Assembly: GCA_964291415.2 (NCBI GenBank)
Contig: OZ219918.1
Coordinates: 1,252,672 to 1,316,671, forward strand
Reading direction: 5' to 3'
Length of the DNA: 64,000 nt
Origin: Alphaproteobacteria bacterium
GTDB taxonomy: Bacteria; Pseudomonadota; Alphaproteobacteria; SP197
Shown here: positions 12,866 to 41,827 of the stretch, piece by piece
Layout: the number at the start of each line of letters is the position of its first letter
Numbering within the stretch: position 1 is the stretch's first letter
Program-made: the position numbers and the translations under genes
Notes under the pieces: generated by a model
Database searches by the model: none
What the model saw: only the letters and a program-made list of their open reading frames with translations
What the model was told of the DNA's origin: nothing

Positions 12866-13586
12866 CATGCGCCGGACCGCAGGAGAGTCACATGCATGAA
12901 TCACCGAATACACTATTGTCGACCACGTGTGCGTCAACCGCGGAGGAACGGCGGGATTCACGTGAACGCCTGCATGACGGCGAATTGCTAACCTCAAGTC
13001 GAAGCAGCGGACAAAGTGGGAGACGTCAGTACCGCCGCCATGGACAACCAAGGCTGGCAAATCCCGAGTGTCGTGCCCAGAGCTAGAACAGAGAAGGTAT
13101 GAAAAAATAGTGAAAAACTACCACACTGGAGGAAACAACACACAATACATACATACCACGCACTATAGTGTTCGCCCAGATCATGCAATCCGGAAGGCAG
13201 AAGGAATTGAAGTACATCACTCAAGCAAGTCCGGCTCTATCCCTCGTGGTTGGCATTCCGGCGGCAGCTGATGATGTTTCGCAAGGAAGCCGTGTTTGCC
13301 CGCGATGGGGTGTGCGAGAAACTACAAGAAAAGAAGATACACCGTCATCGGCCAATTGGACCCCCGTGGATGCGCAGCCAGCGCACCAGCGCTTGGTCAT
13401 GGCCGATGTCCCGAGGGGACCCCGTCAGAACAGCCGGGTCAAGACACGAAACCATCCCGGCTATGTCAACCGTGTGACGCTCAACTAACGGACATGCCAT
13501 GAGCCAGATCCCCCGCAAGGGCGCAGGACTCCGCATAGCATCTCAGAGTGTGTTGGTTCCGGTTTTGCCGGGTTAGGGAAAATGCC
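12866..13586 (+). repeat. dispersed non-coding module, copy A (promoter plus long leader)
   Basis: 12866-13075 aligns with 41058-41265 (shared GAATCACCGAATACA, GTCAACCGCGGAGGA, ACGCCTGCATGACGGCGAATTGC, CAGCGGACAAAGTG). CTATAGT...CAGATCATGCAA at 13177-13188. Confidence 0.8.
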
Positions 13587-13799
13587 ATGAAAGAGAATGT
13601 TATTTCAGCTACCGCAATGTTGGCAATGGCACTATGCGGCACGGTTGCGTTGGCACAGGACTCGACGGACCTCACAACACGACAGATCACCTCGGAAAGT
13701 GACCCCCAGAACGGCAGCACGGAAACTCAAAGCATCGGTGGAATAAAGTGGTTTTGCGAAAAATATCCTGATTCACGAGCGTGCAACCCGGACAATTGA
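13587..13799 (+). CDS. small secreted protein with C-terminal Cys pair
   Basis: Signal peptide MKENVISATAMLAMALCGTVALA|QD. Ends WFCEKYPDSRACNPDN. AGGGA RBS. Confidence 0.6.
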   Translation: MKENVISATAMLAMALCGTVALAQDSTDLTTRQITSESDPQNGSTETQSIGGIKWFCEKYPDSRACNPDN

Positions 13800-13801
13800 A
13801 T

Positions 13802-14353
13802 ATGTACCACCAACAAGTCCTCGATTTGCTCGAACAGATTGCAAAGATACTCGGTGTCGTTGTCGCACTCGTGTCTGCTGCGATAGTGTGGTGTGAGTAC
13901 ACGGCCAATCAGAACAACGAACGCATCAATAGAACATTGCAGTTCTCGGAAGCATATCGGTCCGGTAGTTTTCTGGAGACTAGGAAAGAGCTTCATAAGA
14001 CAGTTGATCGCGCTATTTACGATAAAACCGGTTCGCAACGTGATTGGGACGAGTACGCTGAGGCTTTAGTTGCTATGTTGGATCGCGGCGAACCCTTCAT
14101 CAGCTATGAAATTGTTCTGGAATCGTTTGATGAACTTATGCGATGCACTATCACCGAAGTCTGTGATGTGAAAACAGCGACTGACCTTTTTGCGGAAGAA
14201 GCATGCTTTCTCGTCACTGTTCTGTTTCCGGCTATCGAAGGACGGATTAAGACGACGCATGCGGAACATGCGTCAGGACTACGTTACTTTGCGGACAAGT
14301 ACATTGAGAACGGCACAAAGCCGTGTGTTGCTGTATCCGCTCTCAATGGTTGA
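13802..14353 (+). CDS. single-pass membrane protein, DUF4760-like
   Basis: N-terminal TM (ILGVVVALVSAAIVW), then helical domain with VLESFDELMRCTITEVCD. Starts 2 bp after the previous stop; low GC. Confidence 0.55.
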   Translation: MYHQQVLDLLEQIAKILGVVVALVSAAIVWCEYTANQNNERINRTLQFSEAYRSGSFLETRKELHKTVDRAIYDKTGSQRDWDEYAEALVAMLDRGEPFISYEIVLESFDELMRCTITEVCDVKTATDLFAEEACFLVTVLFPAIEGRIKTTHAEHASGLRYFADKYIENGTKPCVAVSALNG

Positions 14354-14581
14354 TTTCAGGTGCTGTCGTGTCAGCAATGCTAGACATTTTGAGCGCGCCA
14401 GCCTTCGCGGTTGAGCTGCAGAGTTGGAACTGTTGGGGCAACGTCGCACCGTGGGAGACCACATCTACAGGTCGAGCCTTGGCTATTGTTAGAGCAGTTC
14501 GCGCGGTCGATCTATGTGGACCTCAACCTGTGGGCTTGCGCGGCGTTGTGCGCCCGCGTCCACTTGAAAGGAGAATGACCG

Positions 14582-14974
14582 GTGTTCGTGCAGAATCTGA
14601 ATGAGCGCCAACAGGGCGTCTTGCTTCACTACGCCGATGAAGTGATGCGCGTGGATCACAAGATCGACGCTGCGGAACTGTTGGCGATGGACATGCTCCG
14701 AAATCAGACGGAGCCCGGTGTGAAAGCCGAGGATGTGGCGATCGAAGCGCTGCCAGGACTGTTCGAGGACAGACTGAGCCGCGTGTCCTTCCTTCTGGAA
14801 CTGGTTGGCATGGGCTATGCCAACACGGACTTCCATCCCGAACAGTCGGAACTCATCACCCAGATCGCACGCGTGTTCGGCCTCCACGAGAACGGCACGA
14901 AAGAAGCCGTCGAACAATGGGTGAAGGACGAGATTGCCCTGATGAATAAGGCCCGGCAGTTGATGGAGGGCTGA
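14582..14974 (+). CDS. TerB-family protein
   Basis: MFVQNLNERQQ...VMRVDHKIDAAE and second repeat MGYANTDFHPEQSELITQIARVFG fit the TerB D-x-x-x-x-x-x-E helical pattern. AGGAG RBS. Confidence 0.75.
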   Translation: MFVQNLNERQQGVLLHYADEVMRVDHKIDAAELLAMDMLRNQTEPGVKAEDVAIEALPGLFEDRLSRVSFLLELVGMGYANTDFHPEQSELITQIARVFGLHENGTKEAVEQWVKDEIALMNKARQLMEG

Positions 14975-14977
14975 AGG

Positions 14978-16564
14978 ATGCCTCTGCCACTTGTCCTGAT
15001 AGGCGCAGCGGTGGCCGCAGGCGTTGCCATCGGTATTGCCACCGCAGACGACAACGATGACGATGACATCAAGTCGCGCAATCGAGGACGGTCTGACTCG
15101 CGAAGAAGCCGCATGCCGCCCCGGGACGGTTCACGCTTGTCGCGCGAGGAAGTGGCGGGGGTCAGTGCGGGGGTGGCCGGTAGCGGAACGAACTATGCCG
15201 ACAACGTCAGGTTCGGGGCCCAGCACGGTCATGGAGTCGCTGCCGAGAAAGCCAATCACCTCTTTGACACATTTACCGGCAAGGATGCCCGGGTCGTGGG
15301 TGGCGATAACGCGAAGGGCGGTCCGGATCGCATTGTCGGCGGCATCGAAATACAGACCAAATACTGCAGTAGTGGTGTGAAATGCATAGCTGAGTGCTTT
15401 GAAGGCGGCGAGTTTAGATATTTTGGTGGTGACGGTTCGCCCATGCAGATCGAGGTTCCCAGCGATATGTATGAAGGGGCCGTCAAAGCGATGGAAGGTC
15501 GCATCGCGAAGGGCCAGGTGAGCGGCGTTTCAGATCCAGCAAAGGCCAGGGAGATCGTACGCAAGGGACAATTCACCTATGCCCAAGCGAAGAACATTGC
15601 CCGTTTCGGCACGATCGAAAGCCTGACCTACGATACGGTGAACGGCGTGAAGCTGGCCGCGCAAGCGATGGGTGTTTCCGCCGCGCTGTCGTTTGCGGTT
15701 TCGATTTGGAACGGCGAGGATCCCGAAACGGCGTTGAGGCAGGCATGTGTAACGGGCATCAAGGTGGGAGGGATCGCCTGGGCTGGCAGCATCCTTGCGG
15801 CACAACTTGGCAGAACGGGAGTTGAGCAGACACTTAGAGGAACCACTGACTGGGTTGTCAAGCAGATTGGGCCGAAGGCGGCCGCTACAGTAGCCAATGC
15901 TCTGCGGTCCGGCACATCGATCCACGGAGCCGCGGCGATTAACCATGTCAGTAAGCTGCTACGGGGGAACATCGTCACGGGAATCGCGACAACGGCAATC
16001 CTGTCCTCGGTTGACTTCGCTCGCATGTTCCAAGGAAGGATGTCGGGTGCCCAGCTGTTCAAGAACGTTGCCACAACCGCTTCGGGTGTCGCCGGCGGTA
16101 CTGCGGGTTGGATGGCAGGCACCGCCATGGGCGCAGCCATCGGATCAGTTGTGCCTGGTGTCGGGACGGTCTTTGGCGGAGCTATCGGCGCCTTCGCAGG
16201 CGCGTTTGCGGGAGGGGCGGCAACATCGAAAGTGGTGACGGCTGTTCTGGATGAATTCATCGAAGACGATGCAAAAGAGATGCTGAAGATTGTTGAGAAG
16301 ACCTTCGGGATCCTGTGCGTCGACTACCTGCTGAACGAGAAGGAAGCGCTTGCTGTCCTCGAAGAACTACAGAAGTTGGATCTGCCTGTCACTTTGAGGG
16401 ATCTGTATGCATCGAATGATCGGAATGTCCACGCGCGCAGTGTTCTTGAACCGCTCGTGGAGGAACAGGTCAGAGCTAGAAAACGCATATTGCTTCCATC
16501 GAGCAACGACCTGGCGAAGCAAACCGGAGTCATCTTGCAGCAGGCGGCCGAAGCCGAACGTTGA
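14978..16564 (+). CDS. YeeR-like inner membrane protein
   Basis: GHGVAAEKANHLFD...GGDNAKGGPDRIVGGIEIQTKYC, MQIEVPSDMY and YAQAKNIARFGTIESLTYD resemble E. coli CP4-44 YeeR. Glycine-zipper helices near the C-terminus. Confidence 0.75.
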   Translation: MPLPLVLIGAAVAAGVAIGIATADDNDDDDIKSRNRGRSDSRRSRMPPRDGSRLSREEVAGVSAGVAGSGTNYADNVRFGAQHGHGVAAEKANHLFDTFTGKDARVVGGDNAKGGPDRIVGGIEIQTKYCSSGVKCIAECFEGGEFRYFGGDGSPMQIEVPSDMYEGAVKAMEGRIAKGQVSGVSDPAKAREIVRKGQFTYAQAKNIARFGTIESLTYDTVNGVKLAAQAMGVSAALSFAVSIWNGEDPETALRQACVTGIKVGGIAWAGSILAAQLGRTGVEQTLRGTTDWVVKQIGPKAAATVANALRSGTSIHGAAAINHVSKLLRGNIVTGIATTAILSSVDFARMFQGRMSGAQLFKNVATTASGVAGGTAGWMAGTAMGAAIGSVVPGVGTVFGGAIGAFAGAFAGGAATSKVVTAVLDEFIEDDAKEMLKIVEKTFGILCVDYLLNEKEALAVLEELQKLDLPVTLRDLYASNDRNVHARSVLEPLVEEQVRARKRILLPSSNDLAKQTGVILQQAAEAER

Positions 16565-17049
16565 TGTCTTGAGAAGTTCAGCGCGCCATTCGATCGCCAC
16601 ACCAGAACGGGCCCCATCACGTGGCGGCGATGTGCTGTCAACATGCACCGACCAGCGAACCAACAACGGATGGCTCGCAGGTGGTAACGCGCGTCGGCGT
16701 ACGGCGAAGATCGCGGAGAAGGCGGTTTGACCGCCACAAGCGGATTCTTCGACGGCAACCCATTACTATTGGGAGTTGGTTGCGGCCTGAAGTCACAGTC
16801 CCTCTTGCCGTTCCCACTCATCACGAACTCGGTAGCGATTACAATTTCGAGCAATTCCTAAGTGACCCGAGTTACGGATACGACGTCCAAGCATTCGCAC
16901 GCGCACGACCTCATCGCTGTACCTTATTCAAATCGTTGGGGTTGATGGAGATCACGCAAATGAAGGCGGCACCAGTCGCACGCGCCCGCCGCGCAAGCGT
17001 GCAAGCAGCGGCGCAAACGTAAGCGTTCGGCGAGACCGCCCCGGCGAGA

Positions 17050-18586
17050 TCAGGCTTCGGCCTGCCGATCTTCCGCCGGCGCGGTGTTCCACGGCAGCAG
17101 TTCGTCGATGCGGTTGATCTTGTAGTCCGGGATTCGTTCAAGGACGTCGGCAAGCCAGGCCTGCGGGTCGAGGCCGTTGAGCTTGGCGGTCTCGGTCAGG
17201 GTGTAGGCGATGGCAGCGGCCTTGCCGCCGCTGGCCGAGCCCATGAAGAGATAGTTCTTCCTTCCCACCGCGATCGGTCGGATCGCGCGCTCCGCCGGCA
17301 TTGTTATCGAGTTCCAGGAAGCCGTGCTCGAGATAAGGCCGCAGGCGCTTGATGCGGGTCAGCGCATAGCGGATCGCCGCCGCCAGAGGGGTCTTGGCGG
17401 AGATCTTCGGCAGTTGCGCGTGCAGCCAGCGCTCGAACTCGTCGAGGCGCGGCGCGGCCTTGCCGCGGCGGATGGCGACACGCCGCTCGGGGGGAAGGCC
17501 GCGGGCCTCCTTCTCGATCGCATAGAGGGCGGCGATCCGTTCCAGCGCCTCGGCGGCGATCGCCGAGCCCTGGGCGGCATGGACATCGAAGAACTTGCGC
17601 CGGATATGGGCCATGCAGGCGACCTCGCGGACCGGACCGGCGCGGGCCAGTGCACCGAACCCGGCATAGCCGTCCGAGTGCATCCAGCCGCTGAAGCCCG
17701 TCAGATGTTCCTGAGGATGCGCCGCCTTGCGGTCGGTCGAGAAGCGATACCAGGCCGCCGGCGCTGCCGCGCCCTGCCAGGGCCGCTCGTCCCGGACGTA
17801 GGTCCACACCCGCCCGGTCGCCGTCTTGCCGGTTCCCGGCGCCAGAAGCTTGACCGGGGTGTCGTCGGCGAACAACGCCTGGCCGGCCAGCACGTGGCGT
17901 CCGATCGCCTCGGCCAGCGGCTCCAGCAGCGCTGTGCTCTTGCCGACCCAGCCGGCCAGCGTCGAACGGTCGAGTTCCACGCCGTCGCGGGCGAAGATCC
18001 GGCTCATACGATACAGAGGCAAATGATCGCAGTACTTCGAGACCAGCACGTGCGCGAGAAGGCCGGGCCCCGGACGGCCGCGCTCGATCGGCCGCGGCGG
18101 CAAGGGTGTCTGGTGGAAGCGTTCGCAACTGCCGCAGGCCAGGCGCGGGCGAACGATGCGCTTCACCACGAAGCGACCGGGGATGTACTCCAGCTCCTCG
18201 GTCACATCCTGGCCCAGCCGCTTGAGATGCCCGCCGCAGTCCGTGCAGCGTTCGCCTGGCGCCAGGATCGTCTCCTGGCGCGGCAGATGATCCGGCAAGG
18301 GGCGGCGTCTGGGTTGCTTCTTCGCAGGCGTCGGTGGTTCGGGCAGCGCCTCGGCCGTCTGGGCGATCTCCTCGTCCTCCAGGGCGAGCTCGAGCTGGTC
18401 GAGAGCTTCCGAAGAGGCGCCGAAGCGCTGCCGGCGCAGACCCGCAAGCTGATGCTTGAGCTTCTCGATCAGCAGATCGCGGTGGCGCAGCTCGGTGTCC
18501 CGCGCCGCCAGTTCGGCCCTGGAGGTCAGCACCATGGCCTTCAATGCAGCGATGTCGTCAGGCAGGGAATGGGCTTCGGCGAGCAT
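17050..18586 (-). CDS. tnpC: IS66 transposase TnpC (frameshift near 17300)
   Basis: FGASSE, RRPLPDHLPR, CxxCG, KYCDHLPLYR, ADDTPV, DGY, CMAHIRRKF, LDNN. C-terminus AERAIRPIAVGRKNYLF lies in another frame. Confidence 0.9.
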
Positions 18587-18659
18587 GGCGGCAGCCTACC
18601 CGAAAGGGTCGGCGAAGGGAAGCCCGAATCAACTCAACATGTTGTTAAAATGTCGTGAA

Positions 18660-18857
18660 TCAGCCCGCAGACAACGGCCTCCACGTCCGCACAGGGGCCC
18701 GCCAGTCGATCCCCTCCAGCAGCATCGACAGCTGCGCCGGCGTCATCGTCACCTTGCCCCCGGACGCCGACGGCCACACGAAACGGCCGCGCTCCAGACG
18801 CTTCGAGAACAGGCATGCTCCCTGACCGTCCCACCAGATCACCTTGACCAGGTCGCC
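18660..18857 (-). pseudogene. tnpB: IS66 TnpB, 3' part
   Basis: GDLVKVIWWDGQGACLFSKRLERGRFVWP...LSMLLEGIDWR. Confidence 0.9.
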
Positions 18858-18892
18858 TAACCTCATCTCATTCTGCATACCGTCATAGCTTC

Positions 18893-19339
18893 GTGACGGT
18901 GGAGTATCGGTGGCACCCCTTTCACGGGCGTCGCCTCCATGCCCGCAACGCCGGCCGTCGCGACGGAATCCTCCTTCTCGTTGACGGGGACCCGCACACG
19001 TCCCGCAAGGTGCCTGACTGGATGTGCGATCCCGCCATCTGCCAAGCAATGACGCTGGGTCCACCGCTGGTTCGGCTCGACGCACTGTCCGAACTGTCGG
19101 CGGCCCTGGTGAGCCTGTTGCCGGGCGGAACAGGCCCGTCATCATCGGCCTCCCCCCGGAAGGAGAATGCCGATGAAGTCACCGACGTCACGACCACGAA
19201 CCCAACTCCGGTTGAGCCTGGAACCGCCGGTACCGGCGGCGCCGCGATCGGCGGCGCTGATGCGGGCTCTGGCGGATCTTCTGCTCGAAGCCCTGGATCC
19301 GGAGACCGTCACGACCGAGCCAAGGGAGGCGATCGATGA
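18893..19339 (+). CDS. accessory protein of the recombinase element (Y4bD/DUF5372-like)
   Basis: VEYRWHPFHGR...VPDWMCD...LDALSELSAAL pattern, typical of small ORFs preceding these recombinases. Stop overlaps the recombinase ATG. Confidence 0.55.
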   Translation: MTVEYRWHPFHGRRLHARNAGRRDGILLLVDGDPHTSRKVPDWMCDPAICQAMTLGPPLVRLDALSELSAALVSLLPGGTGPSSSASPRKENADEVTDVTTTNPTPVEPGTAGTGGAAIGGADAGSGGSSARSPGSGDRHDRAKGGDR

Positions 19340-19358
19340 ACTCCAAGATCACGTCTGA
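19167..19358 (+). CDS. small accessory ORF (possible directionality factor)
   Basis: GGAG RBS. QLRLSLE...ALMRALADLLLEAL amphipathic helix overlapping the recombinase start. Confidence 0.4.
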   Translation: MPMKSPTSRPRTQLRLSLEPPVPAAPRSAALMRALADLLLEALDPETVTTEPREAIDELQDHV

Positions 19359-21420
19359 GCATCTTTGCCGCGGCGCCACCGTCTACATCCGCCAGTCCAC
19401 GCCGGTGCAGGTGCTGGAGAACACCGAGAGCCAGAGGCGGCAATACGGGCTGGTGGATTCGGCCAAGGCCGCTGGATTCGCGTCGGTGACGGTGATCGAC
19501 GACGATCTTGGCCGTTCTGGCTCCGGGGTGGCGGACCGTCCCGGGTTCCAGAAGCTGGCCGCCGCGGTGTGTGCCGGATCGGTCGGCGCGGTGTTCTGCA
19601 TTGAGGCGTCCAGGCTCGCCCGCAATGGCCGGGACTGGCATCATCTGATCGACCTGTGCGCACTGGCCGGCGCACTGGTCATTGATCCGGACGGGACCTA
19701 CGATCCGCGCCTGATCAACGACCGGCTATTGCTCGGGCTGAAGGGGACGATGTCGGAGTATGAGCTGAGCCTGCTGCGCCAGCGCGGCCTCGCCGCCCGG
19801 GACGCCAAGGCCGGGCGCGGCGAGCTTCGGTTCACCCTGCCGCCGGGCTATTGCTGGGCCGAGAACGGGCGCATCGAGATCGACCCCGACGAGCGCGTGG
19901 CGGACGCGATCCGTCTGGTGTTCGAGAAGTTCCGGGAACTCGGCAGCTCGCGCCAGGTGTATCTATGGTTCCTGGCTGCCGGGCTGAGCCTGCCGGTGGT
20001 GCGGCGCAACTCCGTCGCGCGCCATATCGAGTGGCGGTCGGCGGCCTACCACACGGTGCGCCAGATTCTGAAGAGCCCGATCTATGCCGGGGCCTACGCC
20101 TTCGGGCGGACCGCGGGGCGAACCCGGATCGTGGACGGGCGGGCTCGGAAGACCGAGGGGCACAAGCGCCCGATTACTGACTGGAGGGTGCTGCTGCGCG
20201 ACAACCACGAGGGCTACATCACCTGGGAGCGTTTCGAGGAGAACCAGAGGACGCTGCTTGAGAATGCTCACATGAAGAAGCGTGCCTCGCGAAAGTCGGG
20301 CCGGGGCGGCCGGGCCCTGTTGACCGGCCTGGCGCGCTGCGGGCGCTGCGGGCGCATGATGCGGGTGTTCTACCAGGGCCGGTCGAATCATCCGTATCGC
20401 TACCAGTGCCGGGGAGACTCCAACGGCGCAGGTCTGTGCAATGGCATCGGCGGGTTGCGTATCGACCGCGCTGTCGCCGCGTGCATTCTGGATGCGGTCT
20501 CGCCGCACGCTGTGGAGGCGGCAATGCAGGCGGCCGAGCAAGCTGACCGGGCAGCGGTCGAGCGCCGGCGCGCCGTGGAGCGCGAGCTTGAGGAGGCCGA
20601 GTACGAAGCCTCGCTCGCGGCCCGGCGCTACGAGCTGGTCGATCCCGCCAAGCGGCACGTCGCGCGGGAGCTGGAGGCGCGGTGGAACACCGCGCTTGAG
20701 CGCGTCGAGCAGATCGCGCAACGCCTGGTCGGCCTGGACGCCGAGCGGGCGTCGCGTCCCTCGATCGATCGGGCGGCGCTGATGGATCTGGCGCAGGATC
20801 TTCCCGCGGTGTGGAACGCGCCGACGACGAGTGCGGGGGCGAAGCAGCGTTTGATCCGTACCCTGATCGAGGAAGTGGTGATCGGCCTGGATGATGAGGC
20901 CAACGAGGCGGTCCTGACGATCCACTGGGTGGGCGGGCGCCACAGCGAGACGCGGGTCCCGCGGAGGAGGACCGGCGGATATCCGTCCGACCGCAAGCCC
21001 GATCCGGTCGAGGTCATGTGCAAGCTTGGCGGTTGCTTCCCCGACCGCGATCTTGCGGTGACGATGAACAGAATGCGATGCAGGACCGAAGACGGCGGCA
21101 CCTGGACGATGGTACGAGTCCGCGAGCTCCGGGAGCGCTTGGGTATCGCCGCGTTCGATCCGGCGACGTCAGGTCCCGAGACGATTAGCGCCCAAGAGAC
21201 GGCACATCGCCTTGGGATCTACATCACCTCGGTCCATCAACTCATCCGCGAAGGCACGTTGCCGGCGAGACAACTCATGCCATCGGCTCCGTGGCAGATC
21301 CCGGTCGAAGCACTCGAAAGCGAGGCGGTTCGGATAGGCGTGCGAGAAATCATTGCGCGCCGTCCCGGCAATACCACGCAATTACAAAATCTTAACATTC
21401 CCAGGCTGCCGGGGATCTAA
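19336..21420 (+). CDS. large serine recombinase (resolvase + recombinase + Zn-ribbon + C-terminal HTH)
   Basis: YIRQST catalytic Ser, [40 protein letters not shown], coiled coil. Confidence 0.95.
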
Positions 21421-21446
21421 GAATGGGGACGCACAATGTCACACGA

Positions 21447-22858: not shown

Positions 22859-23337
22859 ATGGCGACCAGCCGTCTCACGCAACGCAGGATCGACGCCCAA
22901 AGGCCGCGCAAGAAGGTCTGTGCCATCCGCGATACCGACATCAAGGGGTTCGGTCTTCGTATTCTGCCTTCCGGGCGCAAGCACTTCCTGCACAGCCAGG
23001 TCAACGGTAGACGCGTCTGGCATGTCATCGGGAGTGTCACGTCCATCACGCTCGACGAGGCACGCCACGAGGCACGAGGCATCCTGACAGCGAGACGCGA
23101 GGGTAACGATCCTCCTAGCGATATCGCTCCCGACCCTCCGTTCGAGACGGTGGCCGACGAGGTCTTCCGGCGATATCGGCGTCACTGGAAGGCAAGCACC
23201 TTCAAGGTCAACGCCTACTACTACAGGAAACGGATCCTGCCCTGGTTTGGAGGCATGGCCATCCGCAGCATCACGCGTGCCGACGTTCAGCGATGGTTCG
23301 CCTCGCTCCATGCCACGCCGGCAGCTGCGGACCGTTC
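22859..23337 (+). pseudogene. tyrosine integrase N-terminal fragment (arm-binding DUF4102-like), truncated by an IS66 end
   Basis: LTQRRID...IRDTDIKGFGLRILPSGRK...ITLDEARHEAR...ITRADVQRWF. Ends where GTAAGCGG begins at 23338. Confidence 0.8.
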
Positions 23338-23953
23338 GTAAGCGGACATTTTGCGACGCCCTTGACGCCGGGCGTCCCGCACCCCTGACCAACTTGTGAT
23401 TTTCAGGCTGCCTGCGGCAGCTTCGTGGGGACGGCCTTGCCGACGTCGGATGTCATCGGGTTGTCGGCGAAGCGCTCCTTCCACAGACGCGCCCGCCGCA
23501 GGATCCCCTGCTCAAGGCCATCGGCTACGCCCGCAACCACAGGAGCGGCCTCGAGGTCTGCCTCCAGGATCCCGCCGTGGCAATCGACACGAACCATCTC
23601 GAAAGGTGCGTCAGGCCGGTCGCGCTGGGACGCCGCAACTGGCTGTTCTGCTGGAGCGAGGCGGGCGCGGAAGCCGTCGGCATCCTGCAGAGCTTGGTGC
23701 TGACATGCCGCCTGCACGGTATCGATCCCTACACGTGGCTGGTCGACGTTCTGCTGCGGGTCTCGACCCATCCCGCCCGGGATGTGGCCCAGCTGACGCC
23801 ACGCCTGTGGAAGGACCACTTCGCTGAGAACCCGATGACATCCGACATCAGCAGGGCCGTGCTCGCGAAGGTGCCGCAGGCAGCCTGAAAATCACAAGTT
23901 GGTCAGGGGTGCGGGAAGCCCGGCGTCAAGGACGTCGCAAAATGACCGGATAC
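23338..23953. mobile_element. IS66-derived miniature element made of two inverted tnpC 3' ends
   Basis: GTAAGCGGACATTTTGCGACG at the left and CGTCGCAAAATGACCGGATAC at the right. ~145-bp imperfect inverted arms. Internal tnpC C-terminus (IDTNHLER...GRRNWLF). No TSD. Confidence 0.8.
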
Positions 23954-23965
23954 GGCCCAACGGCG

Positions 23966-29666: not shown

Positions 29667-30779
29667 TCATTCCTCCTGAAGGCCCGAGGGACAATCGACG
29701 CCATGGGCCGCGAAGAGGTCTGCGAGGCCCTCGATGGTCAGATCGAGCAGCGAAGTCGCGCGGCGCATGGAGAGATGACCCTGTTCCAGGGCCAGGCCGA
29801 CGACCTCGGCGAAGGGCCGCGAGAACAGGACGGGCGGGGAGTCCTCCGCAACAGTGCCGCCGTTCTTGTGCAGCGCGGCCTCGGGCAGCCCTCGCGCCGT
29901 CGCGTCATCGACCTCGCCCAGCTCGACGAGGCGCCACCGGAGCGCCGAGGAGCTCACCCGGAGCTCGTTGGCGACGGCGTTCAGCCGTGCGATGAGATGG
30001 TCTTCGGAGAGGCCCGACCAGCGGCCGAAGCGCTCCAGTGCCTGACCCGGCATGAGTAGCCCCGCCGCGAACCGGTTGGCGAGGCGCTCGACTTTCTTGC
30101 CGCCCGCCACCGCGCCCGTCTCCGAGCGGGCGGGCGGCATCGAGTCCCAGGTGAGGATGTGGAACAGCTCGTGGGCGAGGTCGAAGTGGCGGCGGCCGGG
30201 AAGTTCGTGGCGGGCGATCAGCACCGCGTCCAGGTCGGGCAGGCGGCAGGCCGCGCCGGAGATGCCGGGCTCCGCGTCGACCATGAGCACCAGCATGTCG
30301 AAGTCGCGCTCCATGACACCCGCAAGACGTGCGGCGGGCACACTGCCCAGGCCGAACTCGCACGCAAAGCGCTCCCCGGCACGCTCCGCGTCCTCGAACT
30401 TTGCGCCGGGCGCGAGCGTGAGCGAGCGGCGCAGCAGGGGAGGATCCCGGCCGACTTTTGGAGCCAGGGCGCGGTAGGCCGCGATCCAGGGTCCGGCCTT
30501 CCGTTCATAGGCGTCCAACACTTCGTCGTCGGCGCCGTCCAGCCGCCAGGAAAACCGTCCCTCGCCGACCAGGAGAAACGGATCGGTGAAGTAGTCCAGG
30601 GGAACGTCGAGCCTCTCGACCGCGAGAACGAGCTCATCGGCCGACAGGCGCCTGACGCCGGTCTCTATGGCGGACACGGTCTGCCGGTCCCTGAAGCCGA
30701 AGATGCGCGCCAGATCGTCCTGTGAGAGCCCGCGCGTCTCCCGCAGCGCCTTGATCCGCTTTGCCATGCGATAGCTCAC
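29667..30779 (-). CDS. XRE-family HTH fused to ImmA/IrrE metallopeptidase
   Basis: RIKALRETRGLSQDDLA...VSAIETG HTH, RRHFDLAHELFH (HExxH), ERLANRFAAGLLMP. GTG start with GGGAG RBS. Confidence 0.92.
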   Translation of the reverse strand: MSYRMAKRIKALRETRGLSQDDLARIFGFRDRQTVSAIETGVRRLSADELVLAVERLDVPLDYFTDPFLLVGEGRFSWRLDGADDEVLDAYERKAGPWIAAYRALAPKVGRDPPLLRRSLTLAPGAKFEDAERAGERFACEFGLGSVPAARLAGVMERDFDMLVLMVDAEPGISGAACRLPDLDAVLIARHELPGRRHFDLAHELFHILTWDSMPPARSETGAVAGGKKVERLANRFAAGLLMPGQALERFGRWSGLSEDHLIARLNAVANELRVSSSALRWRLVELGEVDDATARGLPEAALHKNGGTVAEDSPPVLFSRPFAEVVGLALEQGHLSMRRATSLLDLTIEGLADLFAAHGVDCPSGLQEE

Positions 30780-30804
30780 CGCGTGTCTCCCTTCAAAGCA
30801 ATAC

Positions 30805-30838
30805 CTTGCAGTAGACAATACGCAAGATTATATGTCAA
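30805..30838 (-). promoter_or_regulatory. candidate promoter/operator of the XRE-ImmA gene
   Basis: Minus strand TTGACA-17-TCTACT. Inverted repeat CTTGC-N12-GCAAG (30805-30826). Confidence 0.5.
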
Positions 30839-31004
30839 GACAGACAACGCGGCAATTGTGTTTTGATGGGTGTGCGCGGCTTGGCGGCATGACCGAAGGC
30901 GAAGACACAGGCCCGGGGCGGTCGGTCGAGCACACGAATGTGAAAGTATTCAATGAAATCAACGTCAACGTAGTGGAACAGAAGTTCAACCGCTGGAGGA
31001 AACC

Positions 31005-32569
31005 ATGCCCCGCTCTTTTGCCTTTCTCGCCGTCGCTCTTGTCATCGCCGCCTGCGGAGGCGGCGGTGGCGGCATGTCGGAAACCGCGATGGTCCCGGTG
31101 ACGCCGGATCCCAATCCGGAGCCACAACCCGAATCGATGGTGCCCGCGACGCCACCCGATGGGGTGCGCGGTGCCCTGGCCGCACCGGTTGTCGACCTCG
31201 ATACAGCCCGGTACGTGGAGAGGCGGACACTGAGCGGGATTCGCCATGTCGGCGCCGACACTGCGCCGCTGCCTGCGGGAACGACGTGCGACAGGTCGGG
31301 CGTGGATCGGTTCGGGCAACCTGCGACGGTGCCGAGTGCCCGTTGGTGCGAAAGCCCGTTACCGGATCACACCCTTCCCGGGTGACGCAGCATGGCACGG
31401 TGGCCGTGTCATATGGCCGGATCAAGGACGGGGTGGGTCGCGACCAGGTGATCGCTTTTCTGAGAGAGAATGCGGTGGCAGCACAAGAGTGGGTGCCGGG
31501 ACTGCTGCCCGGCCTGACGATCCGTTCCGAACCGCTTACCGTCCGTATGTTCGAAGGGACGACCGAGAAGCAGGCCGGTTACGTAATCGACGCCATTCGG
31601 ATCATCAACGCGGCCCTGCCGCGAGAGTGGAAGCTGACGGTGTCCGACGAACGGACGCCCGAGGTCGCGGTCGCGGACATTCCTGCCGGCGAAGTGCATG
31701 TCGGGTTCAATCTCGTGCCCGACAGCGGAAGGTTCAACCTGACGATCAGGGACGGCGCCTTCACCGGCGGTCGCCTTCTCATCAGGAGCGATCTTCCGCC
31801 CTACGGGGCGCAGTCAGCCGTCGCCACCGCGACGGAGCACGACTATCACCAGACCAACGTGGGACTGCTCGTCCACGAGTTCATGCACGCGATGGGCTTC
31901 CTGGCGCATCCGGACATGGTCTCCGCTACCAGCTATGATCGCGACCTGACGGGTTGGGCCGGACTGCCCGCGCACGTCCTCTATCCCCTCGACCGCGAGG
32001 CCCTGCTCGCCGCCTTCACGCGACTGGGGCCTGGCGATCATCGACCCGAAGACATCGCTCAGGGCCTGGGGCCGTGGTCCGACACGTCCATCCACGTCCG
32101 GGGTGTACTCGATCTACCGGGCGGTGGCGGGGACATGGCCTTCGGGGCCGCTCACCGCAACGGGTTTGCGCGGCCCTGGGCCTACGGCCCGGCGCCGCGA
32201 ACAGACATCACGGACAACGCCCGGATCGCCGGTTCAGCCAGCTGGGAAGGCCGTCTGCTCGGCCTCACTCCGCAGGCCGAGACGGTGGCCGGCGCCGCTG
32301 ACCTTGCGGTCCGGCTCGACAGCCTGACCGGCTCGATCGAATTCACCGGGCTGGAACAGTGGTCGGGAGCACCCGGCGCCATTGGCTCCGGCACGATGTG
32401 GGGCGACGGCGACCTCGGCTATGCGATTTCGGTGCAAGGCAACGTCTTCGTGCAGACCGGCGGCGACGAGGGCCAAGTCACGGGCGCGTTCTTCGGCGCG
32501 GCGCACGAGGGCATGGGCGGCACGCTCGAGCGCGACGATCTCGCGGCCGGCTTCGCCGGCACACGGTAG
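31005..32569 (+). CDS. surface lipoprotein: metzincin zinc-protease domain plus TbpB-like C-terminal barrel (frameshift ~31280-31370)
   Basis: Lipobox IAAC followed by GGGGG, HEFMHAMGFLAH zinc motif, C-terminal ASWEG...VTGAFFG...GGTL...GFAGTR. Confidence 0.75.
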
Positions 32570-35178: not shown

Positions 35179-35864
35179 CGCGGACTTCCCACAACGCTCT
35201 TGACATGTCGTTGTTCGTCAAGGGCCGACCCCTCAGAGTCCAGCGTACTCACCAGGTTGTTGCGCCGATCAGCGCCATTCCACTTTGCTGATCGACATTC
35301 GAGACAATGGTAAGCGTCGCCCCGGAGGCGCCGCGCCATGCGGGAGTGCCGGACGAATCACGGGATCAACTGGATAAGGAGCTCGAGCGCTTAGAGCGCA
35401 ATCCTATCTGAGTGAGCAGACCTGCGCCGCCATGCGGGAAGCTCCGGTTGTCCAGTCCAGACACTGACCGGTGGCGTTGACAAGAGCGACCTGGTGGTCG
35501 TCCCCCGGTCGATGCCGACAACAACGTTGAACTCAGGCATGCAATCGACTCTCCGCAGGAATGGCACTCCTGCGGACCACTGCGTTACACGCCCACTCCT
35601 GTACTGGCGCTTGAGGCGCAGTCGCCCCACGGGGCATCCATCGTCGCCAACGAGCGGGACACGGGTCCATGGCAGGTGTTCGAGAAACGGAGTAACTTCG
35701 ATTGTTTCCGATCGATTGGCCCATGCCGTCTTTGCCGACGAAGCCCTGACACGGGAGGGAAGGGCGCGCAGGACTGCACTGTTCCCCGGGTTCCCCTCCG
35801 CGCTACGCGCTACAGAGAACTCGGGCCAGTTGCGCAGCGTACGCCGTCAGGAACCCTAGCACGC

Positions 35865-36473
35865 ACAGGATAACCACGCGTAGCAGCTCCCGCCTGCTGA
35901 GCCCAATCACGAAAAGAGAACACGAAAACAATAGAACGAAGCTGACGAAGTCGATGGCGCCGCAACACGCAAAGCATACATGCATGGTGCTATGATGTCG
36001 CGTCAGATCATGCAACCCGGAAAAAGGGAATGAGGCAAAACCGTCCACGCGATGCCAGCATGGGCCTCGTGGCCAGTATACCGGCGGCAGCCGAACAAGC
36101 CGATGCGGAAACAACGCTGAACTTGCCGGTAGGTGACCCGGATGGGGAGTTGATCGTGGTGCGCACGGAGCAGTGCCGGGACGCCTCGCTTGTACGGCAC
36201 CGACAGCGGGGAAGGCGTCAGACGTTGTGCAAGCAAGGGATGCAGGCTGGTCGCTCTGCAACCCGCTTCTGCGTCGGAACGCCGGGGACTGTGGTCCGTC
36301 GCAAAGGCCCCGCCCGTAATGCGAAGTCGAGAGACCAGGGTGTACGGCCTGTCCGGTCTTGCCTGCTCGCACGTTTGCGGACCAAGACGGCGTGTCAAGT
36401 GCGCTCGCCTCCCGAGCACAACAGGACAGGCAAAGCGCGACACTATGGCGCAGCACCAAATTGGGAGAGTGCC
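35865..36473 (+). repeat. dispersed non-coding module, copy B
   Basis: AACCACGCG.AGCAG, A-rich tract, CTATGAT, CAGATCATGCAA (36004-36015). GGGGAGTTGATCGTGG, CCGCCCGTAATGC, GTCTTGCCTGC and AAGCGCGACAC are shared with copy C. Confidence 0.8.
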
Positions 36474-37220
36474 ATGACCCTGTATTCCGAGCGCCTTGCA
36501 TGGGCATGCTGCGTGTCGCTGGGCGTGTTGGCGAGCACCTCCCTTGCGCCCGCCCAGCAGCCTTCATGCGACGAGTGGAACACATTCGAGTTTTTCCGCG
36601 ATGCCGCCGCAGCGACCGTGTCCCGTTGCCTGGAAGCCGGCGCCGACATCCACGCACGGGACGACAGGCTGCCCGCTTCCTCGGCCGCCACACCCGGATG
36701 GGGAGTTGATCGTGGTGCGCACGGAGCAGTGCCGGGACGCCGCTTGTACGGCACCGACAGCGGGGAAGGCGTCAGACGTTGTGCAAGCAAGGGATGCAGG
36801 CTGGTCGCTCTGCAACCCGCTTCTGCGTCGGAACGCCGGGGACTGTGGTCCGTCGCAAAGGCCCCGCCCGTAATGCGAAGTCGAGAGACCAGGGTGTACG
36901 GCCTGTCCGGTCTTGCCTGCTCGCACGTTTGCGGACCAAGACGGCGTGTCAAGTGCGCTCGCCTCCCGAGCACAACAGGACAGGCAAAGCGCGACACTAT
37001 GGCGCAGCACCAAATTGGGAGAGTGCCATGACCCTGTATTCCGAGCGCCTTGCATGGGCATGCTGCGTGTCGCTGGGCGTGTTGGCGAGCACCTCCCTTG
37101 CGCCCGCCCAGCAGCCTTCATGCGACGAGTGGAACACATTCGAGTTTTTCCGCGATGCCGCCGCAGCGACCGTGTCCCGTTGCCTGGAAGCCGGCGCCGA
37201 CATCCACGCACGGGACGACA
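36136..37220 (+). repeat. near-perfect tandem duplication (~530 bp x2: 36136-36666 and 36692-37220)
   Basis: The copies appear identical except for a 2-nt indel (ACGCCTCGCTT vs ACGCCGCTT). 25-bp spacer. Confidence 0.92.
36474..36691 (+). pseudogene. truncated secreted ankyrin protein N-terminus, copy 1
   Basis: Signal peptide plus CDEWNTFEFFRDAAAATVSRCLEAGADIHARD. The spacer reads as a decayed GxTPLHxAA. Confidence 0.7.
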
Positions 37221-37261
37221 ACACCAATCTGCAATCGGCGAACCGAGGACAATTGAGATGA
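37028..37261 (+). pseudogene. truncated secreted ankyrin protein N-terminus, copy 2
   Basis: Same peptide as 36474. Its stop overlaps the ATG of the next gene. Confidence 0.65.
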
Positions 37262-38742
37262 CTCAACGTCGGATGTCACTTCTTCGGCTGCTTGCCGCCA
37301 CATCCATACTCATGCTGTCCGCGTGGTCTTCGCAGGCCCATGGTCGTTCCTGTGGCGACTGGCCTGAGTCATCATTCTTCACGCGGGCTAGCACGCTAGA
37401 CGTAGTGAACTGTTTGGAAACCAAAGACCCTAACGCGAGAGATGAAGACGGCCGGCCGGCCTTGGCGAATCTAGTAGGCTTTGGATGGCACGATTCGATG
37501 CTAGAGAAGATCGTAGTCGTGTTGAGGGCCGGGGCCGACCCAAACTTGTTCGATCGTGGTTACAAGGGCACTGGATTCAACGAGAAGACCAGTCTGGAAA
37601 TGGCGTTGCTATATGCTCTTGGTGACGGGTTTGATTTCAGTGCAGCGCAAAGAGAACGATATTGGCAAGTCGTTACGGCCCTTCTTGCGTATGGTGGCGA
37701 CCTGCGCGCGATAGAGGGTGTCGACGGCGAGTTCGAATGGCGGGACGCCGAGCATGCTGCCAAATATCGGGCTGCATCATCGCCAGAAGCAATCGCGGCG
37801 TTCAGAAAGTGGGAAGCCGACGTGGTTGCGGCCCTTAGGGCGGAACAGGGCGCGGCCCAGGCGGAAGCCGATGCTCGCGAGATTGAGGATCATCTGCAAT
37901 CCGCGAGCGTCTCGTGCGAGCGTTGGAACACGGTGGGCTTCTTCACGACCGCCATCCCGGACGACATCGCCGCCTGCCTCGAAACCGAGAGCCTCGATGC
38001 GCGGGACGACCAGGGCCGCACGCCGATCCACCTGGCGGCCCTGCATGGCACCCCGGCGGTCGTGGCCGCGCTTGGCGAGGCCGGAGCCGACCCGGACGCG
38101 GCGGACGGCCAGGGCCGCACCCCCCTCCACCTGGTCGCGGTGTTCGGCGACGATCCCGCAATCGTGACCGCCCTCGTGCGGGCCGGTGCGAGCCTCGATG
38201 CGCAGGACGCCAGGGGCCGCACTCCCCTCGAGTTCGCCGAGACATTCAGCGAGGATCCTGCGATCGTCGCTGCGCTGCGCGAGGCCGTGACGGAAGCGAA
38301 CGCGCCTGACGAACCGGTCGCCTCCACGGCGGATACCGGACCGGCAACGTGCGCGGACTGGAACACGGCGGCCTTCTTCGGACGGGCGACGGCGGAGGAT
38401 GTTGCACGCTGCCTCGAGACGGCCGATCCGAACGCCAGGAACCAGCACGGCCGGACGCCGATGCACTACGCGGCGCAGGGCACCTCACCGGCGCTGGTGA
38501 CGATCCTGGCAGAGGCCGGGGCGGACCTCGACCCGGCGGACGGGCGGGGCGGCTGGACTCCCCTTCACCTCGCGGCGTGGTTCAGCACGACGCCTTCGGT
38601 GGTCGCGGCCCTTCTCGCTGCCGGTGCCGACCCGGCGGCCAAGGACGACGCGGGCAGGACGCCCTGGGACTACGCCCGCGAGAATGCGGCGCTGGAAGGC
38701 ACGCCGCCCTACTGGCGACTGAACGAGGAGGCCGGCGAATAG
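37258..38742 (+). CDS. secreted ankyrin-repeat protein
   Basis: Signal peptide. Repeats GRTPIHLAA, GRTPLHLVA, GRTPMHYAA, GWTPLHLAA with AGADP turns. Confidence 0.92.
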   Translation: MTQRRMSLLRLLAATSILMLSAWSSQAHGRSCGDWPESSFFTRASTLDVVNCLETKDPNARDEDGRPALANLVGFGWHDSMLEKIVVVLRAGADPNLFDRGYKGTGFNEKTSLEMALLYALGDGFDFSAAQRERYWQVVTALLAYGGDLRAIEGVDGEFEWRDAEHAAKYRAASSPEAIAAFRKWEADVVAALRAEQGAAQAEADAREIEDHLQSASVSCERWNTVGFFTTAIPDDIAACLETESLDARDDQGRTPIHLAALHGTPAVVAALGEAGADPDAADGQGRTPLHLVAVFGDDPAIVTALVRAGASLDAQDARGRTPLEFAETFSEDPAIVAALREAVTEANAPDEPVASTADTGPATCADWNTAAFFGRATAEDVARCLETADPNARNQHGRTPMHYAAQGTSPALVTILAEAGADLDPADGRGGWTPLHLAAWFSTTPSVVAALLAAGADPAAKDDAGRTPWDYARENAALEGTPPYWRLNEEAGE

Positions 38743-38803
38743 GCCCGCGGAACGGCCGGAACGCAGGCCAGCCGGGGTTCTGCACAATCAGGAGGACGAA
38801 GCG

Positions 38804-39967
38804 ATGAATCGCACGCTTCCGATCATCCCGGCAACGCTCGCCGTCGTGGCGGCGTCGTTGCCGACAGACGCGTCAGACGTCGATCTGTGTGCCGCGGACC
38901 AATACGAGCCCTGTTCGTTCTTCACGACGAACCGGGAAATCGGGCATCACGAGCAGATCATCGACAATCACCTCGCCGGGTTCACCCGCAGTGAGGGCTC
39001 GTGGACCATCAGCGTTCGGTATCAGCCGGACACGCAATGCGCGAAGGTCGACATTCTGGTTGACATGGGACCGCTGGACATCCCGCGGCAGTACAGGGAG
39101 GAGTTCAGCGCTGGCGCGGGCGAGATCAGCGACAGCGGCGCCTTCATGCACAAGATGGATGACCTTGAAAGCGCCCTGGGCATACTCTCGAGTTCATGCC
39201 GCGTGCCCAGGGCGGAGAGTTCGCAGGCGGACACCGCCGCGGGTGATGGCGCAACGCCCGATGAAGAAGAGCGGGAAAGGCTGGCGCTGGAAGAGGAGCG
39301 TGAGCGCCTTGCGCTGGAGCGTGAACGTGAACGGCTTGCCGTCGAACGGGAACAGGAGAGGCTTGCCCTGGAGCGGGAGCGGCTCGCCCTGGAACACGAC
39401 CTTGCCGCTGCCCGCGAGAGAGAGCGCCTTGAGCGGGAGCGCGCCCACCGACTGGAGGAGGAAAGGCGCGAACGCGAGCGTCTGGCGCAACGGCAACGGG
39501 AGCAGGAAGAACTCGCAAGACGTCAGGCACAACACGACGACTGGATGCACGACGAGTGGACGCGCGAGGATACGGCCGATGCATCGGAGACCGACCCCTT
39601 CGGCGACGTCATGACCGGGCTCGGGCTCGGGGTTCTCGCCGGTGCGATCATTGCGGGCGATGACGAAGCCCTCGACGCGGCTGCCGATATCCTTACCGGG
39701 AGCCTTGGCGGCGTGTACGCGCCTTCGACCGGCAGCACCTACGACACCGGGAGCGGCACCTGTCAGGAACTGGGCGAACGGTTCGCCACGGACTATGGCG
39801 CCTTCCACGGCGACGGGTCCATGTGCGGCATCTACAGGCACCAGTACAACGTCATGGTCGCGTACCGCGAGCCGCTCGTCCGCAACAACTGCACGGACGC
39901 GGCCGAATGGGATGCATCGATCCGGCAGACCCGGGAAGGTGTGGAGGCGGCCTGTGCCGGCTCCTGA
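38804..39967 (+). CDS. secreted protein with ERERLAL coiled-coil repeats and Cys-rich ends
   Basis: AGGAGG RBS, signal peptide, tandem ERERLALE repeats at ~39265-39440. Confidence 0.75.
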   Translation: MNRTLPIIPATLAVVAASLPTDASDVDLCAADQYEPCSFFTTNREIGHHEQIIDNHLAGFTRSEGSWTISVRYQPDTQCAKVDILVDMGPLDIPRQYREEFSAGAGEISDSGAFMHKMDDLESALGILSSSCRVPRAESSQADTAAGDGATPDEEERERLALEEERERLALERERERLAVEREQERLALERERLALEHDLAAARERERLERERAHRLEEERRERERLAQRQREQEELARRQAQHDDWMHDEWTREDTADASETDPFGDVMTGLGLGVLAGAIIAGDDEALDAAADILTGSLGGVYAPSTGSTYDTGSGTCQELGERFATDYGAFHGDGSMCGIYRHQYNVMVAYREPLVRNNCTDAAEWDASIRQTREGVEAACAGS

Positions 39968-40124
39968 CATCCAGCCGGACGATGCCAAGGCCAAGGCGGG
40001 AGCAGGGGAGGGCAGCCGGACCGGCATCGAAGTCGCGGGAAACCATGGGACGGGGCTGACGCGTGCACGCCAGCCGTCCCCGAATCGTGACATTGCGCTG
40101 AACCAGCCGCCAACGGGGATCGAC

Positions 40125-40829
40125 ATGAGACGTTCGGCAGCGACGATCGCAGCGTCCCTTGGCATGGCGCTGATACTCGACGCGAACGCTGGCGACCTCG
40201 TCGTTCGCGTCGCGACGTATGAGCACCAGGGCTGTCATGTTGGCAACAGTCGCTACCTGCCAGCCGGGGCAGAAGACGGGAGCGCAGTCCGTCACGTTTT
40301 TCCGGGAGGGGAACAGCAGTGCAGGACAATGATCGAGCACAAGCAGCAAGGGTGTCGAATGGCGGTCATTTTCCCGTCCACGAATGAGGGCACCCCATGG
40401 CAGCCGGGAGAGAAGGAGCCCTCCTGTCTCGCCGAGTTCGCCGCCGAGGTTCAACGATGCATCGCGCACTATGAACTGGAGAGCGCGAAATGCGCCGGTG
40501 ACGACGACAACGCCAGCCCCGGCGCCGCCGTTCTTGAGTCCGCCATCGAGCGCTCGGTGTTCGACGGCACCTGGCTGGTCCAAGGACAATCCAATCAAGG
40601 AGTCACCTTTACGTACATCTGCACGCTGACGACCCGTGGTTCCAGCATTGAAGAGCGCTGTACCGGAGAGGGTGTCCTGCCCGGCGATGTCCAGACAGGA
40701 GTCGTGAGCGGGCAGGTGGCCCGGCTTGCAGCCACCAGTGGTAGCTACGTCACCGAATTGCGGGCAGTGGACCAAGACACCCTGGTCTTCACATACCGAT
40801 ACGGCAGCGGCACCTACAAGCGGCAGTAA
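40125..40829 (+). CDS. secreted Cys-rich hypothetical protein
   Basis: Signal peptide MRRSAATIAASLGMALILDANA, 8 Cys, C-terminal FDGTW beta domain. Confidence 0.65.
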   Translation: MRRSAATIAASLGMALILDANAGDLVVRVATYEHQGCHVGNSRYLPAGAEDGSAVRHVFPGGEQQCRTMIEHKQQGCRMAVIFPSTNEGTPWQPGEKEPSCLAEFAAEVQRCIAHYELESAKCAGDDDNASPGAAVLESAIERSVFDGTWLVQGQSNQGVTFTYICTLTTRGSSIEERCTGEGVLPGDVQTGVVSGQVARLAATSGSYVTELRAVDQDTLVFTYRYGSGTYKRQ

Positions 40830-41057
40830 CCCAGGAAACATCACGGCGGGCGGGCCAGTCCGACGACCACTCACGATGGCACAGCCACCGAGCCCCGACG
40901 CATGACGGCCGATCCGGCGACGCGGCCCGGCCCGATCGGGCCGCCATCGCGCGGAAGTCCGCCTTCTCCGTGGGGAACCGCTCGGCCTTGCGCCGCAGAC
41001 GCCGCTTCCGCAACGTCATCCGGCTTTCGGTCTGCCATTCCGCCGCCCGCCAGGCCC

Positions 41058-41827
41058 CATGCGCCGGGCCGCAGGAGAATCACATTCAAGAATCACCGAA
41101 TACAAGGTTGTCGACTACGCGTGGGTCAACCGCGGAGGATGGCGGGATTCGCGTGTACGCCTGCATGACGGCGAATTGCACACATCGTGTCGAACCAGCG
41201 GACAAAGTGCGAAACGTCAGCGCCGCCGCCATCGACAACCACGCTTGGCAGAACCCGAGTGCCGACTCAGTGTGAGAGCAGCGAATTCTAGGAAAGAACA
41301 TGAAAACGATAGATGTGAGATCTGAAACAACATAGGAAAAACACACGCTAGATGCTATGATATTGGGTCAGATCATGCAAGTCGAAAGAAGGGAATAGAA
41401 GTATTCCATCCAAGCGAAGCCAGCGTTGGCCTTACCTGGCCAGCGTGCCGGCGGCGGCTGTGGAAACAACGCCGCACTTTCCGCCAGGCGACCTGGAAGG
41501 GGAGTTGATCGTGGCGCATGCGGAGCGGTGCCCGGATCGCCGCAGGTACGGCGCCGGGAGCGGGGAACGCTTCCGACATGGTCCGAACAGGGAATGCGCG
41601 TTGGCCACCCTGCGATTCGTGCCCGCACCAGGATTGCCGGAATGTGATCCGTCAAAACGGTCCCGCCCGTAATGCCAGGTCGAGAGAACAGGGCTTACAA
41701 CCTGTCCTGTCTTGCCTGCCCGTGCGTTTGCAGAACAGGCCGGTGTGTCACTTCCGTCTGTTCGTCGTGCCGCCCGGGCGCTGCAGGACCGGCGAAGCGC
41801 GACACCCCGTTTGCCGTTAACCGCTAG
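41058..41827 (+). repeat. dispersed non-coding module, copy C (most complete)
   Basis: 5' part aligns with copy A and 3' part with copy B. CTATGAT and CAGATCATGCAA at 41369-41380. Confidence 0.8.

Follow-up and report, generated by a model that had tools for sequence, protein, structure and literature searches.

Putative mobile promoters (PMPs), described by Matus-Garcia, Nijveen and van Passel in 2012, are defined operationally, as summarised in PMC3575422, by an identity of 80% or more across 50 nt or more in the interval -150 to -50 relative to the start codons, with non-paralogous genes downstream. In the erp loci of Borrelia, according to the account given in PMC10016077, a conserved promoter/operator region (the 'upstream homology box') stands before diverse surface-lipoprotein open reading frames (ORFs) on mobile DNA, the gene bodies being swapped by recombination and the genes being co-expressed via their shared operators. 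Here we describe three copies, named A, B and C, of a non-coding region found in a 64,000-nt stretch of DNA from an uncultured alphaproteobacterium (contig OZ219918.1 of assembly GCA_964291415.2). This stretch, which we call the window, makes up the final 64 kb of contig 2 in an assembly of 4.44 Mb and five contigs. The repeat is real but of an already known type: it is confined to one genome, and its ends are ragged and partly derived from an insertion sequence (IS). We favour, and give an even chance to, a reading in which the copies arose by passive duplication of a promoter/operator region that has a long, unstructured leader and belongs to the putative mobile promoter type.

Repeat finding, BLAST and three-way alignment all recover the copies on the + strand, at 12863-13270 (A), ~35917-36473 (B) and 41055-41827 (C), as the first-pass annotation of this DNA had proposed. 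The sharing between them is partial, and again as first proposed: A and C have their upstream part in common, with 87% identity between 12863-12947 and 41055-41139 and 85% between 12950-13073 and 41141-41264 (82% over 252 nt by BLAST), while B and C share their downstream part, with 72% identity between 35988-36443 and 41353-41805, including a 112-nt block that is 80% conserved. In the three-way core, pairwise identity is only 53-62%. The identity between A and C drops in a step, from ~85% up to 13072 to ~62% beyond, and the copies are mosaics. As part of the favoured reading, and with the same balanced confidence, we take the three stretches to be old paralogous copies of one non-coding intergenic region, the parts of which are as follows.

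12863..13073, + strand: copy A upstream block, made up of an IS5 right-end stub (12863-12943) and 130 bp of flank; 85-87% identity to 41055-41264.
13074..13270, + strand: copy A core, with an A-rich tract of 47% A and 40% GC; ~62% identity to C.
Copy A core motifs, + strand: CTATAGT at 13163, CAGATCATGCAA at 13177-13188, GAAGGAAT at 13200 and CCGGCGGCAGC at 13258.
13271..13586, + strand: A-specific stretch of 316 nt from the core to the next gene, without homology to B, C or the rest of the genome.
35917..36015, + strand: copy B core, with an A-rich tract, a palindrome at 35988-36015 that includes the TGn-TATGAT box, and the 12-mer at 36004-36015.
36016..36473, + strand: copy B leader, 72% identical to the C leader, non-coding and with no detectable structure.
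41055..41264, + strand: copy C upstream block, with a stub of the same IS5 right end at 41055-41135 and no transposase upstream; the rest is flank in common with A.
41265..41380, + strand: copy C core, with an A-rich tract of 43% A and 41% GC, a palindrome at 41353-41380 and the 12-mer at 41369-41380.
41381..41827, + strand: copy C leader, with homology to B as far as GAGAGT..GCC..ATG, just before or at the start codon.

An extension of B to the left of ~35917, which had also been claimed, was not significant. Within B, 35917-35935 matches C at 17 of 19 positions and becomes collinear with it only after 13 nt are removed. Relative to the window, 13 nt (2+5+6) are missing from a short-read contig of run X1 at 35944-35961, in the A-rich tract of B, and a further 2 nt at 36185; the 13 nt that have to be removed for collinearity are the same ones that this contig lacks. 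These differences are either strain variation or assembly indels.

All three copies carry the 12-mer CAGATCATGCAA, at 13177, 36004 and 41369, and these are its only occurrences in the genome when both strands are searched; here the first-pass annotation was right in calling it invariant. A run of 12 invariant columns was seen in 0.3% of column shuffles of the three-way core alignment (P ~0.003). A second motif, CCGGCGGC, follows 66-70 nt after the 12-mer in each copy. The 12-mer lies 104 nt from the end of the conserved upstream block in A and 105 nt in C, so that the weakly similar cores are collinear homologues rather than chance resemblances. The next start codon follows the 12-mer after 410 nt in A, 470 nt in B and 459 nt in C, in agreement with the 410-480 nt first noted.

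Each core contains an A-rich, T-poor tract with 40-53% GC, against ~65% GC regionally, followed by a -10-like box. This box reads TGcTATGAT in B and C, which is the shape of an extended -10 element, and CACTATAGT in A; in B and C it stands 7 nt before CAGATC. Furthermore, in these two copies an imperfect palindrome of 28 bp, TGCTATGAT-N10-ATCATGCA, has the box for one arm and the 12-mer for the other; its arms are conserved, its spacer is variable, and it occurs in the genome twice, in B and C only. A palindrome lying over a -10 box and a transcription start is the expected look of a dimeric-repressor operator, and we regard this one as a putative operator.

Profile searches of the 4.44 Mb genome with the core, the upstream part and the downstream part returned no further copies, the sole extra match being a partial copy that stems from a tandem duplication at B. 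BLAST against 60 related genomes, a search that the first-pass annotation had proposed, gave only a 25-nt GC-rich chance match, and the same chance match was all that appeared in five further genomes reached via relaxase loci. No match to the module was found in a plasmid collection by blastn. Pattern scans returned 10, 10 and 0 stretches from public genome contigs and 15 from metagenome contigs, all of them the motif alone, and an nhmmer check matched only the searched motif itself. The description 'portable' finds no support in a unit with three copies and ragged ends, all within 29 kb of one genome.

At their left end, A and C run into a different kind of DNA.

12096..12943, + strand: decayed IS5-family insertion sequence upstream of copy A.

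Intact IS5 transposases of same-family genomes, used as tblastn queries, pick out a transposase remnant here in two frames, at 12395-12682 (E 4e-27) and 12648-12896 (E 9e-16). The profiles Pfam DDE_Tnp_1 (E 0.0019) and NCBIfam IS5_3 (E 0.11) match the remnant as well. Its stop codon at 12897-12899 falls within the A/C block, which starts at 12863 in A and 41055 in C. With the C-terminus of the transposase and its stop inside the shared block, A and C each begin with ~81 bp that come from the right end of a dead IS5-family element. In intact IS5 copies ~43 nt separate the stop from the element end, and a 13-nt inverted repeat at 12931-12943 pairs with 12096-12108, giving candidate IS5 ends; the right end would accordingly be placed at ~12943. 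Copy B carries no IS stub, and the IS fragment found no match among plasmids by tblastn. The first-pass annotation had seen neither a transposase nor a terminal inverted repeat, a statement that fails for the left part. No terminal inverted repeats bound the module itself.

The remainder of the module is non-coding. Compared in all six frames, B and C give equal scores that hop from frame to frame, with no frame favoured, in line with the nucleotide-level conservation first suggested; the short translations quoted for it (MQSGRQKELK.., and MQPGKRE and MQVERRE, each followed by a stop) read as stated. Among 42 open frames of the module, 41 had no Pfam match, and the other gave a chance-level GntR match (E 0.0096, 16 bits against a 27-bit cut-off). 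With NCBIfam, six ORFs yielded only the IS5 hint and a chance ArfB match, and no module ORF passes the filter of third-codon-position GC content (GC3) set by the genes of the genome. A decayed protein-coding gene was rejected as a candidate on the absence of frame-specific conservation and of any credible Pfam match outside the left IS end. A known IS end and a decayed gene were among the things that the first-pass annotation had named as speaking against its proposal; the first was found in part, one end of the module lying inside a dead IS5 element, and the second was not found beyond the IS stub.

All copies are oriented as the + strand ORFs downstream of them, each of which has a signal-peptide-like start. 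The signal-peptide regions of the three ORFs are unrelated, and blastp (E up to 0.01) gave no cross-matches among 14 ORF products including these three. The homology of B and C spans ~450 nt, up to the ribosome-binding site and start codon, and the proteins encoded beyond it are unrelated. Copy A is without the B/C leader and has in its place the unrelated 316 nt listed above, followed by a low-GC gene block. The genes concerned are these.

13587..13799, + strand: 70-aa ORF with a signal-peptide-like N-terminus and two Cys, at the start of the low-GC block.
36136..37220, + strand: tandem duplication of a ~0.55-kb unit, 36136-36666 and 36692-37220, with a 2-nt indel and 25 nt between the units.
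37028..37261, + strand: second truncated ankyrin-like ORF, with 77 codons to the stop, 64 of them ankyrin-like; its stop overlaps the next ATG (ATGA).
37258..38742, + strand: intact ankyrin-repeat gene of 494 aa, with its own signal-peptide-like start MTQRRMSLL.. (Pfam Ank, E 5e-27).
41828..42817, + strand: 329-aa ORF with a lipobox-like LLAAC and a weak, sub-threshold likeness to Slam-dependent lipoproteins.

The 70-aa ORF behind A has no family match. It opens a block of four ORFs (13587-16564, 52-59% GC) with weak matches only, to DUF4760, TerB, DUF6861 and a retron Ec48 effector model (E 0.014), and this block looks like foreign cargo. Behind B, the first-pass annotation had placed an ankyrin protein; the ORF directly after the copy is instead a truncated, 64-codon N-terminal fragment of an ankyrin-like protein within the tandem duplication, the unit of which comprises the 3' 338 nt of the B leader and the first 193 nt of the ankyrin-like ORF. 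A module of the form C..W(N/P)..FF....CLE..(D)...ARD..GR(T)P is repeated three times within the intact protein further downstream, and the truncated fragment is a fourth, broken copy of that module behind a signal peptide. Downstream of this gene, 38804-39967 encodes an exported-looking protein of 387 aa with a long charged ERERLALE-type repeat region and no family match. As for C, the lipoprotein behind it had been called TbpB-like, a name that comes down to a match with the Slam-dependent lipoprotein model below the threshold (E 0.0013, 19 bits against an 80-bit cut-off). Distant paralogues of this ORF elsewhere in the genome are without the module. Within the window, three ORFs, at 31286-32569, 41828-42817 and 49822-50901, weakly resemble Slam-dependent surface lipoproteins at E-values of 6e-4 to 2e-3, below the threshold; the first of them has an HExxH motif, LLVHEFMHAMGF.

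How does this locus compare with the described systems? Like PMPs, as outlined in PMC3575422, it consists of highly similar non-coding DNA before non-paralogous genes in one genome, and an IS association is reported there for part of the PMPs. The lack of cross-matches among the ORF products fits the non-paralogy part of the PMP definition. The identity cut-off is reached by the B/C pair only, with 80.6% over 72 nt within -150 to -50; in the same interval A and B show no match, and A and C only a 10-nt chance match. Copy A differs from PMPs in staying below the cut-off, with its similarity located further upstream. Moreover, the copies described here are older (53-85% identity) than typical PMP pairs, for which a mean of 92% is stated in PMC3575422, and the unit is unusually long, at up to 0.77 kb.

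The resemblance to the erp loci, as these are portrayed in PMC10016077, lies in a conserved and, here, putative promoter/operator region before diverse ORFs for exported proteins on mobile DNA. However, the conserved unit of erp continues into the leader peptide, whereas the homology described here stops at or before the start codon; and erp loci are allelic on many prophage plasmids (PMC10016077), whereas the present copies occupy three sites in one island. Since the homology ends before the signal peptide, the module is not a member of the erp, or upstream homology box, type. With IS-associated promoter capture, for which IS-linked examples are mentioned in PMC3575422, it has in common that two of the three copies physically include an IS end. 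It differs in that the IS is dead, that the putative promoter lies ~230 nt outside the IS end and not in it, and that copy B has no IS stub.

Taken together, the orientation of the copies, the -10-like box, the palindrome, the homology that reaches the start codon and the PMP-level identity of B and C argue for a passively duplicated promoter/operator region. The anatomy fits the reuse of a promoter before unrelated genes for exported proteins, as first suggested; the module is not a clean unit, its ends being ragged. From this anatomy we infer promoter activity, operator activity and co-regulation of the downstream genes. That the copies are neither a self-mobile element nor a structured RNA belongs to the same reading and carries the same, evenly weighted confidence. 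In the proposed mechanism, segmental duplication and recombination, acting in an island full of dead mobile DNA, would have spread the copies passively; the points that we count for passive copying are the IS5 end, transposase codons included, in A and C, and the step in identity at 13073. Transcription would start near CAGATC under the control of one regulator, and the transcript would extend across the long, unstructured leader of 410-470 nt and then into the gene for an exported protein that recombination happened to have put behind it.

Several observations weigh against a promoter/operator region. Neither a consensus sigma-70 promoter on the + strand nor a recognisable -35 box was found in any of the cores, and copy A has no TG of the extended -10, a degenerate box and a degenerate left palindrome arm. 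The only promoter-like site to overlap a core belongs to C and is on the opposite strand (TCGACT-17-TATCAT, 41385-41357). Core identity is low, and to define the 'core' as the part where three partial copies overlap brings in some ascertainment bias. The motif stands before no other gene of the genome. Finally, as B precedes a truncated gene and A has a different downstream part, at least some of the copies may be dead.

In the main rival explanation, the copies would be neutral relics of segmental duplication and deletion in a decaying island, with no present regulatory role and with motifs that are chance survivals. We consider this possible, if clearly less probable than a duplicated promoter/operator region. 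The copies sit among the remains of mobile DNA, in an island that includes a MobF/TrwC relaxase on the minus strand (5418-11000), an Xre/ImmA-like pair, a large serine recombinase, transposases of IS66 and IS110, the remnant of IS5 and frameshifted ORFs. Such surroundings are what a history of decay would leave, and so are the ragged ends, one of them inside a dead IS, the position of B inside a tandem duplication before a truncated gene, the loss of the B/C leader from A, and the failure to find a copy outside the source genome in related genomes, plasmids and public genome and metagenome scans. What speaks against neutral relics is that the invariant 12-mer and the palindrome with its conserved arms and variable spacer stand out from a near-saturated background, and that the B/C homology ends right at the start codons of unrelated genes. 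The window also holds another repeat, of 150-300 nt and 86-88% identity, present as an inverted pair at 23.3-23.9 kb (23337-23954) and again at 44916-45269 beside the IS110 transposase; small ORFs whose GC3 resembles that of genes (23577-23888 and 44876-45208) overlap with it.

A more far-reaching proposal, which we think doubtful, sees in the core a dedicated promoter-operator cassette of the island. One repressor, binding at TGCTATGAT-N10-ATCATGCA, would jointly switch on interchangeable exported proteins (the ankyrin-repeat protein, the surface-lipoprotein-like protein and the small Cys peptide), and new cargo would be acquired by recombination in the conserved leader, aided by the adjoining IS5 end.

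Could the module instead be a site for a DNA transaction, either a recombination or attachment (att) core left by the accretion of elements, or the transfer origin of the neighbouring MobF/TrwC relaxase? As direct repeats in which a short core is identical and the flanks are specific to each element, the copies do resemble the att sites that accreted elements leave. Copy A is also 2.2 kb upstream of the relaxase operon, its strand is the one on which a nic site would be expected, and it bears a loose likeness to the R388 nic region (oligonucleotide from PMC4814116, Table 1). In a gapped scan with the R388 nic 25-mer, however, copy A came only about sixth in the window, and B and C were outside the top 24. 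As this likeness is at background level and not common to B and C, a MOBF (R388/TrwC-type) transfer origin was rejected. Furthermore, none of 76 related relaxase loci has the core, the upstream block or the downstream block, and at nine loci with relaxases 84-89% identical to this one the DNA in common with the window extends only to ~11871, short of the module. Accretion at att sites was rejected as well: none of the 21 genomic tyrosine integrase matches lies in the window, and the genome has no second occurrence of the conserved terminus of the relaxase element (~11838-11871). The repeat left by a large serine recombinase would be no longer than 2 bp. In sum, we hold a role in DNA transactions to be very unlikely.

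Two observations on these neighbours may be added. The last ~100 bp in common with the nine loci of other genomes (11772-11871) are conserved upstream of a 254-aa gene that adjoins the relaxase and contain repeated GTCATGAC-like motifs; the abrupt end of homology near 11871 looks like the end of the relaxase mobile element. The R388 nic region is matched best, within the window, at 30802-30826 on the minus strand, where TGCGTATTGTCTA (30809-30821) is an exact match of 13 nt. On one side of it is a TTGACA box and on the other the start of the Xre/ImmA-like gene at 29667-30818; with a near direct repeat, GCGTTGTCTGTC, just upstream, it could be a nic site or an operator.

The first-pass annotation had also offered an unrecognised cis-regulatory RNA leader, and a structured leader of this kind, riboswitch-like or thermosensor-like and common to the transcripts, would suit the length of the leaders (410-470 nt) and the 80% conservation of the 112-nt B/C block. 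We found nothing that favours it. Rfam gave no match at gathering level over the whole window, and up to E 1 in the 10.5 kb around the copies one irrelevant lncRNA match (E 0.25). Single-sequence folds were not in excess (z -0.14 for B, -1.79 for C and +0.52 for A), and the consensus fold of B and C was no better than shuffled (z +0.13, with 118 of 200 column shuffles at least as good), in a comparison that has low power with two informative sequences. Copy A, moreover, is altogether without the B/C leader. A structured RNA is on this evidence highly improbable. A related candidate is suggested by the single-strand promoters of leading regions, of the Frpo/ssi type, which form a long imperfect hairpin in single-stranded DNA; it was rejected after single-stranded DNA folds of A and C on both strands gave z-scores of -0.62, -1.57, -0.63 and -0.99.

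Least probable of all, and nearly negligible, is that the module is a coding gene in decay or an entire transposable element of an unrecognised kind. The end of a transposase gene and its IS does account for the left 81 bp of A and C, but the rest shows no frame-specific conservation and no Pfam match above chance level, and neither terminal inverted repeats nor further copies were found. An insertion sequence or miniature inverted-repeat transposable element was likewise rejected, with no terminal repeats, only three copies in 4.44 Mb, and just those left 81 bp IS5-derived.

As it stands, the locus illustrates how segmental duplication beside dead insertion sequences yields look-alike 'modules', and the first reading of it had to be corrected on three points, in that an IS stub is present, the ankyrin fragment is truncated and RNA structure is absent. 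If the copies are active and jointly regulated, the putative operator, with its defined 28 bp, would serve as bait for the regulator, and the copies would form a small natural case of promoter reuse that links unrelated exported proteins into one regulon, a regulon that would include a eukaryote-like ankyrin protein on the mobile DNA of an uncultured alphaproteobacterium.

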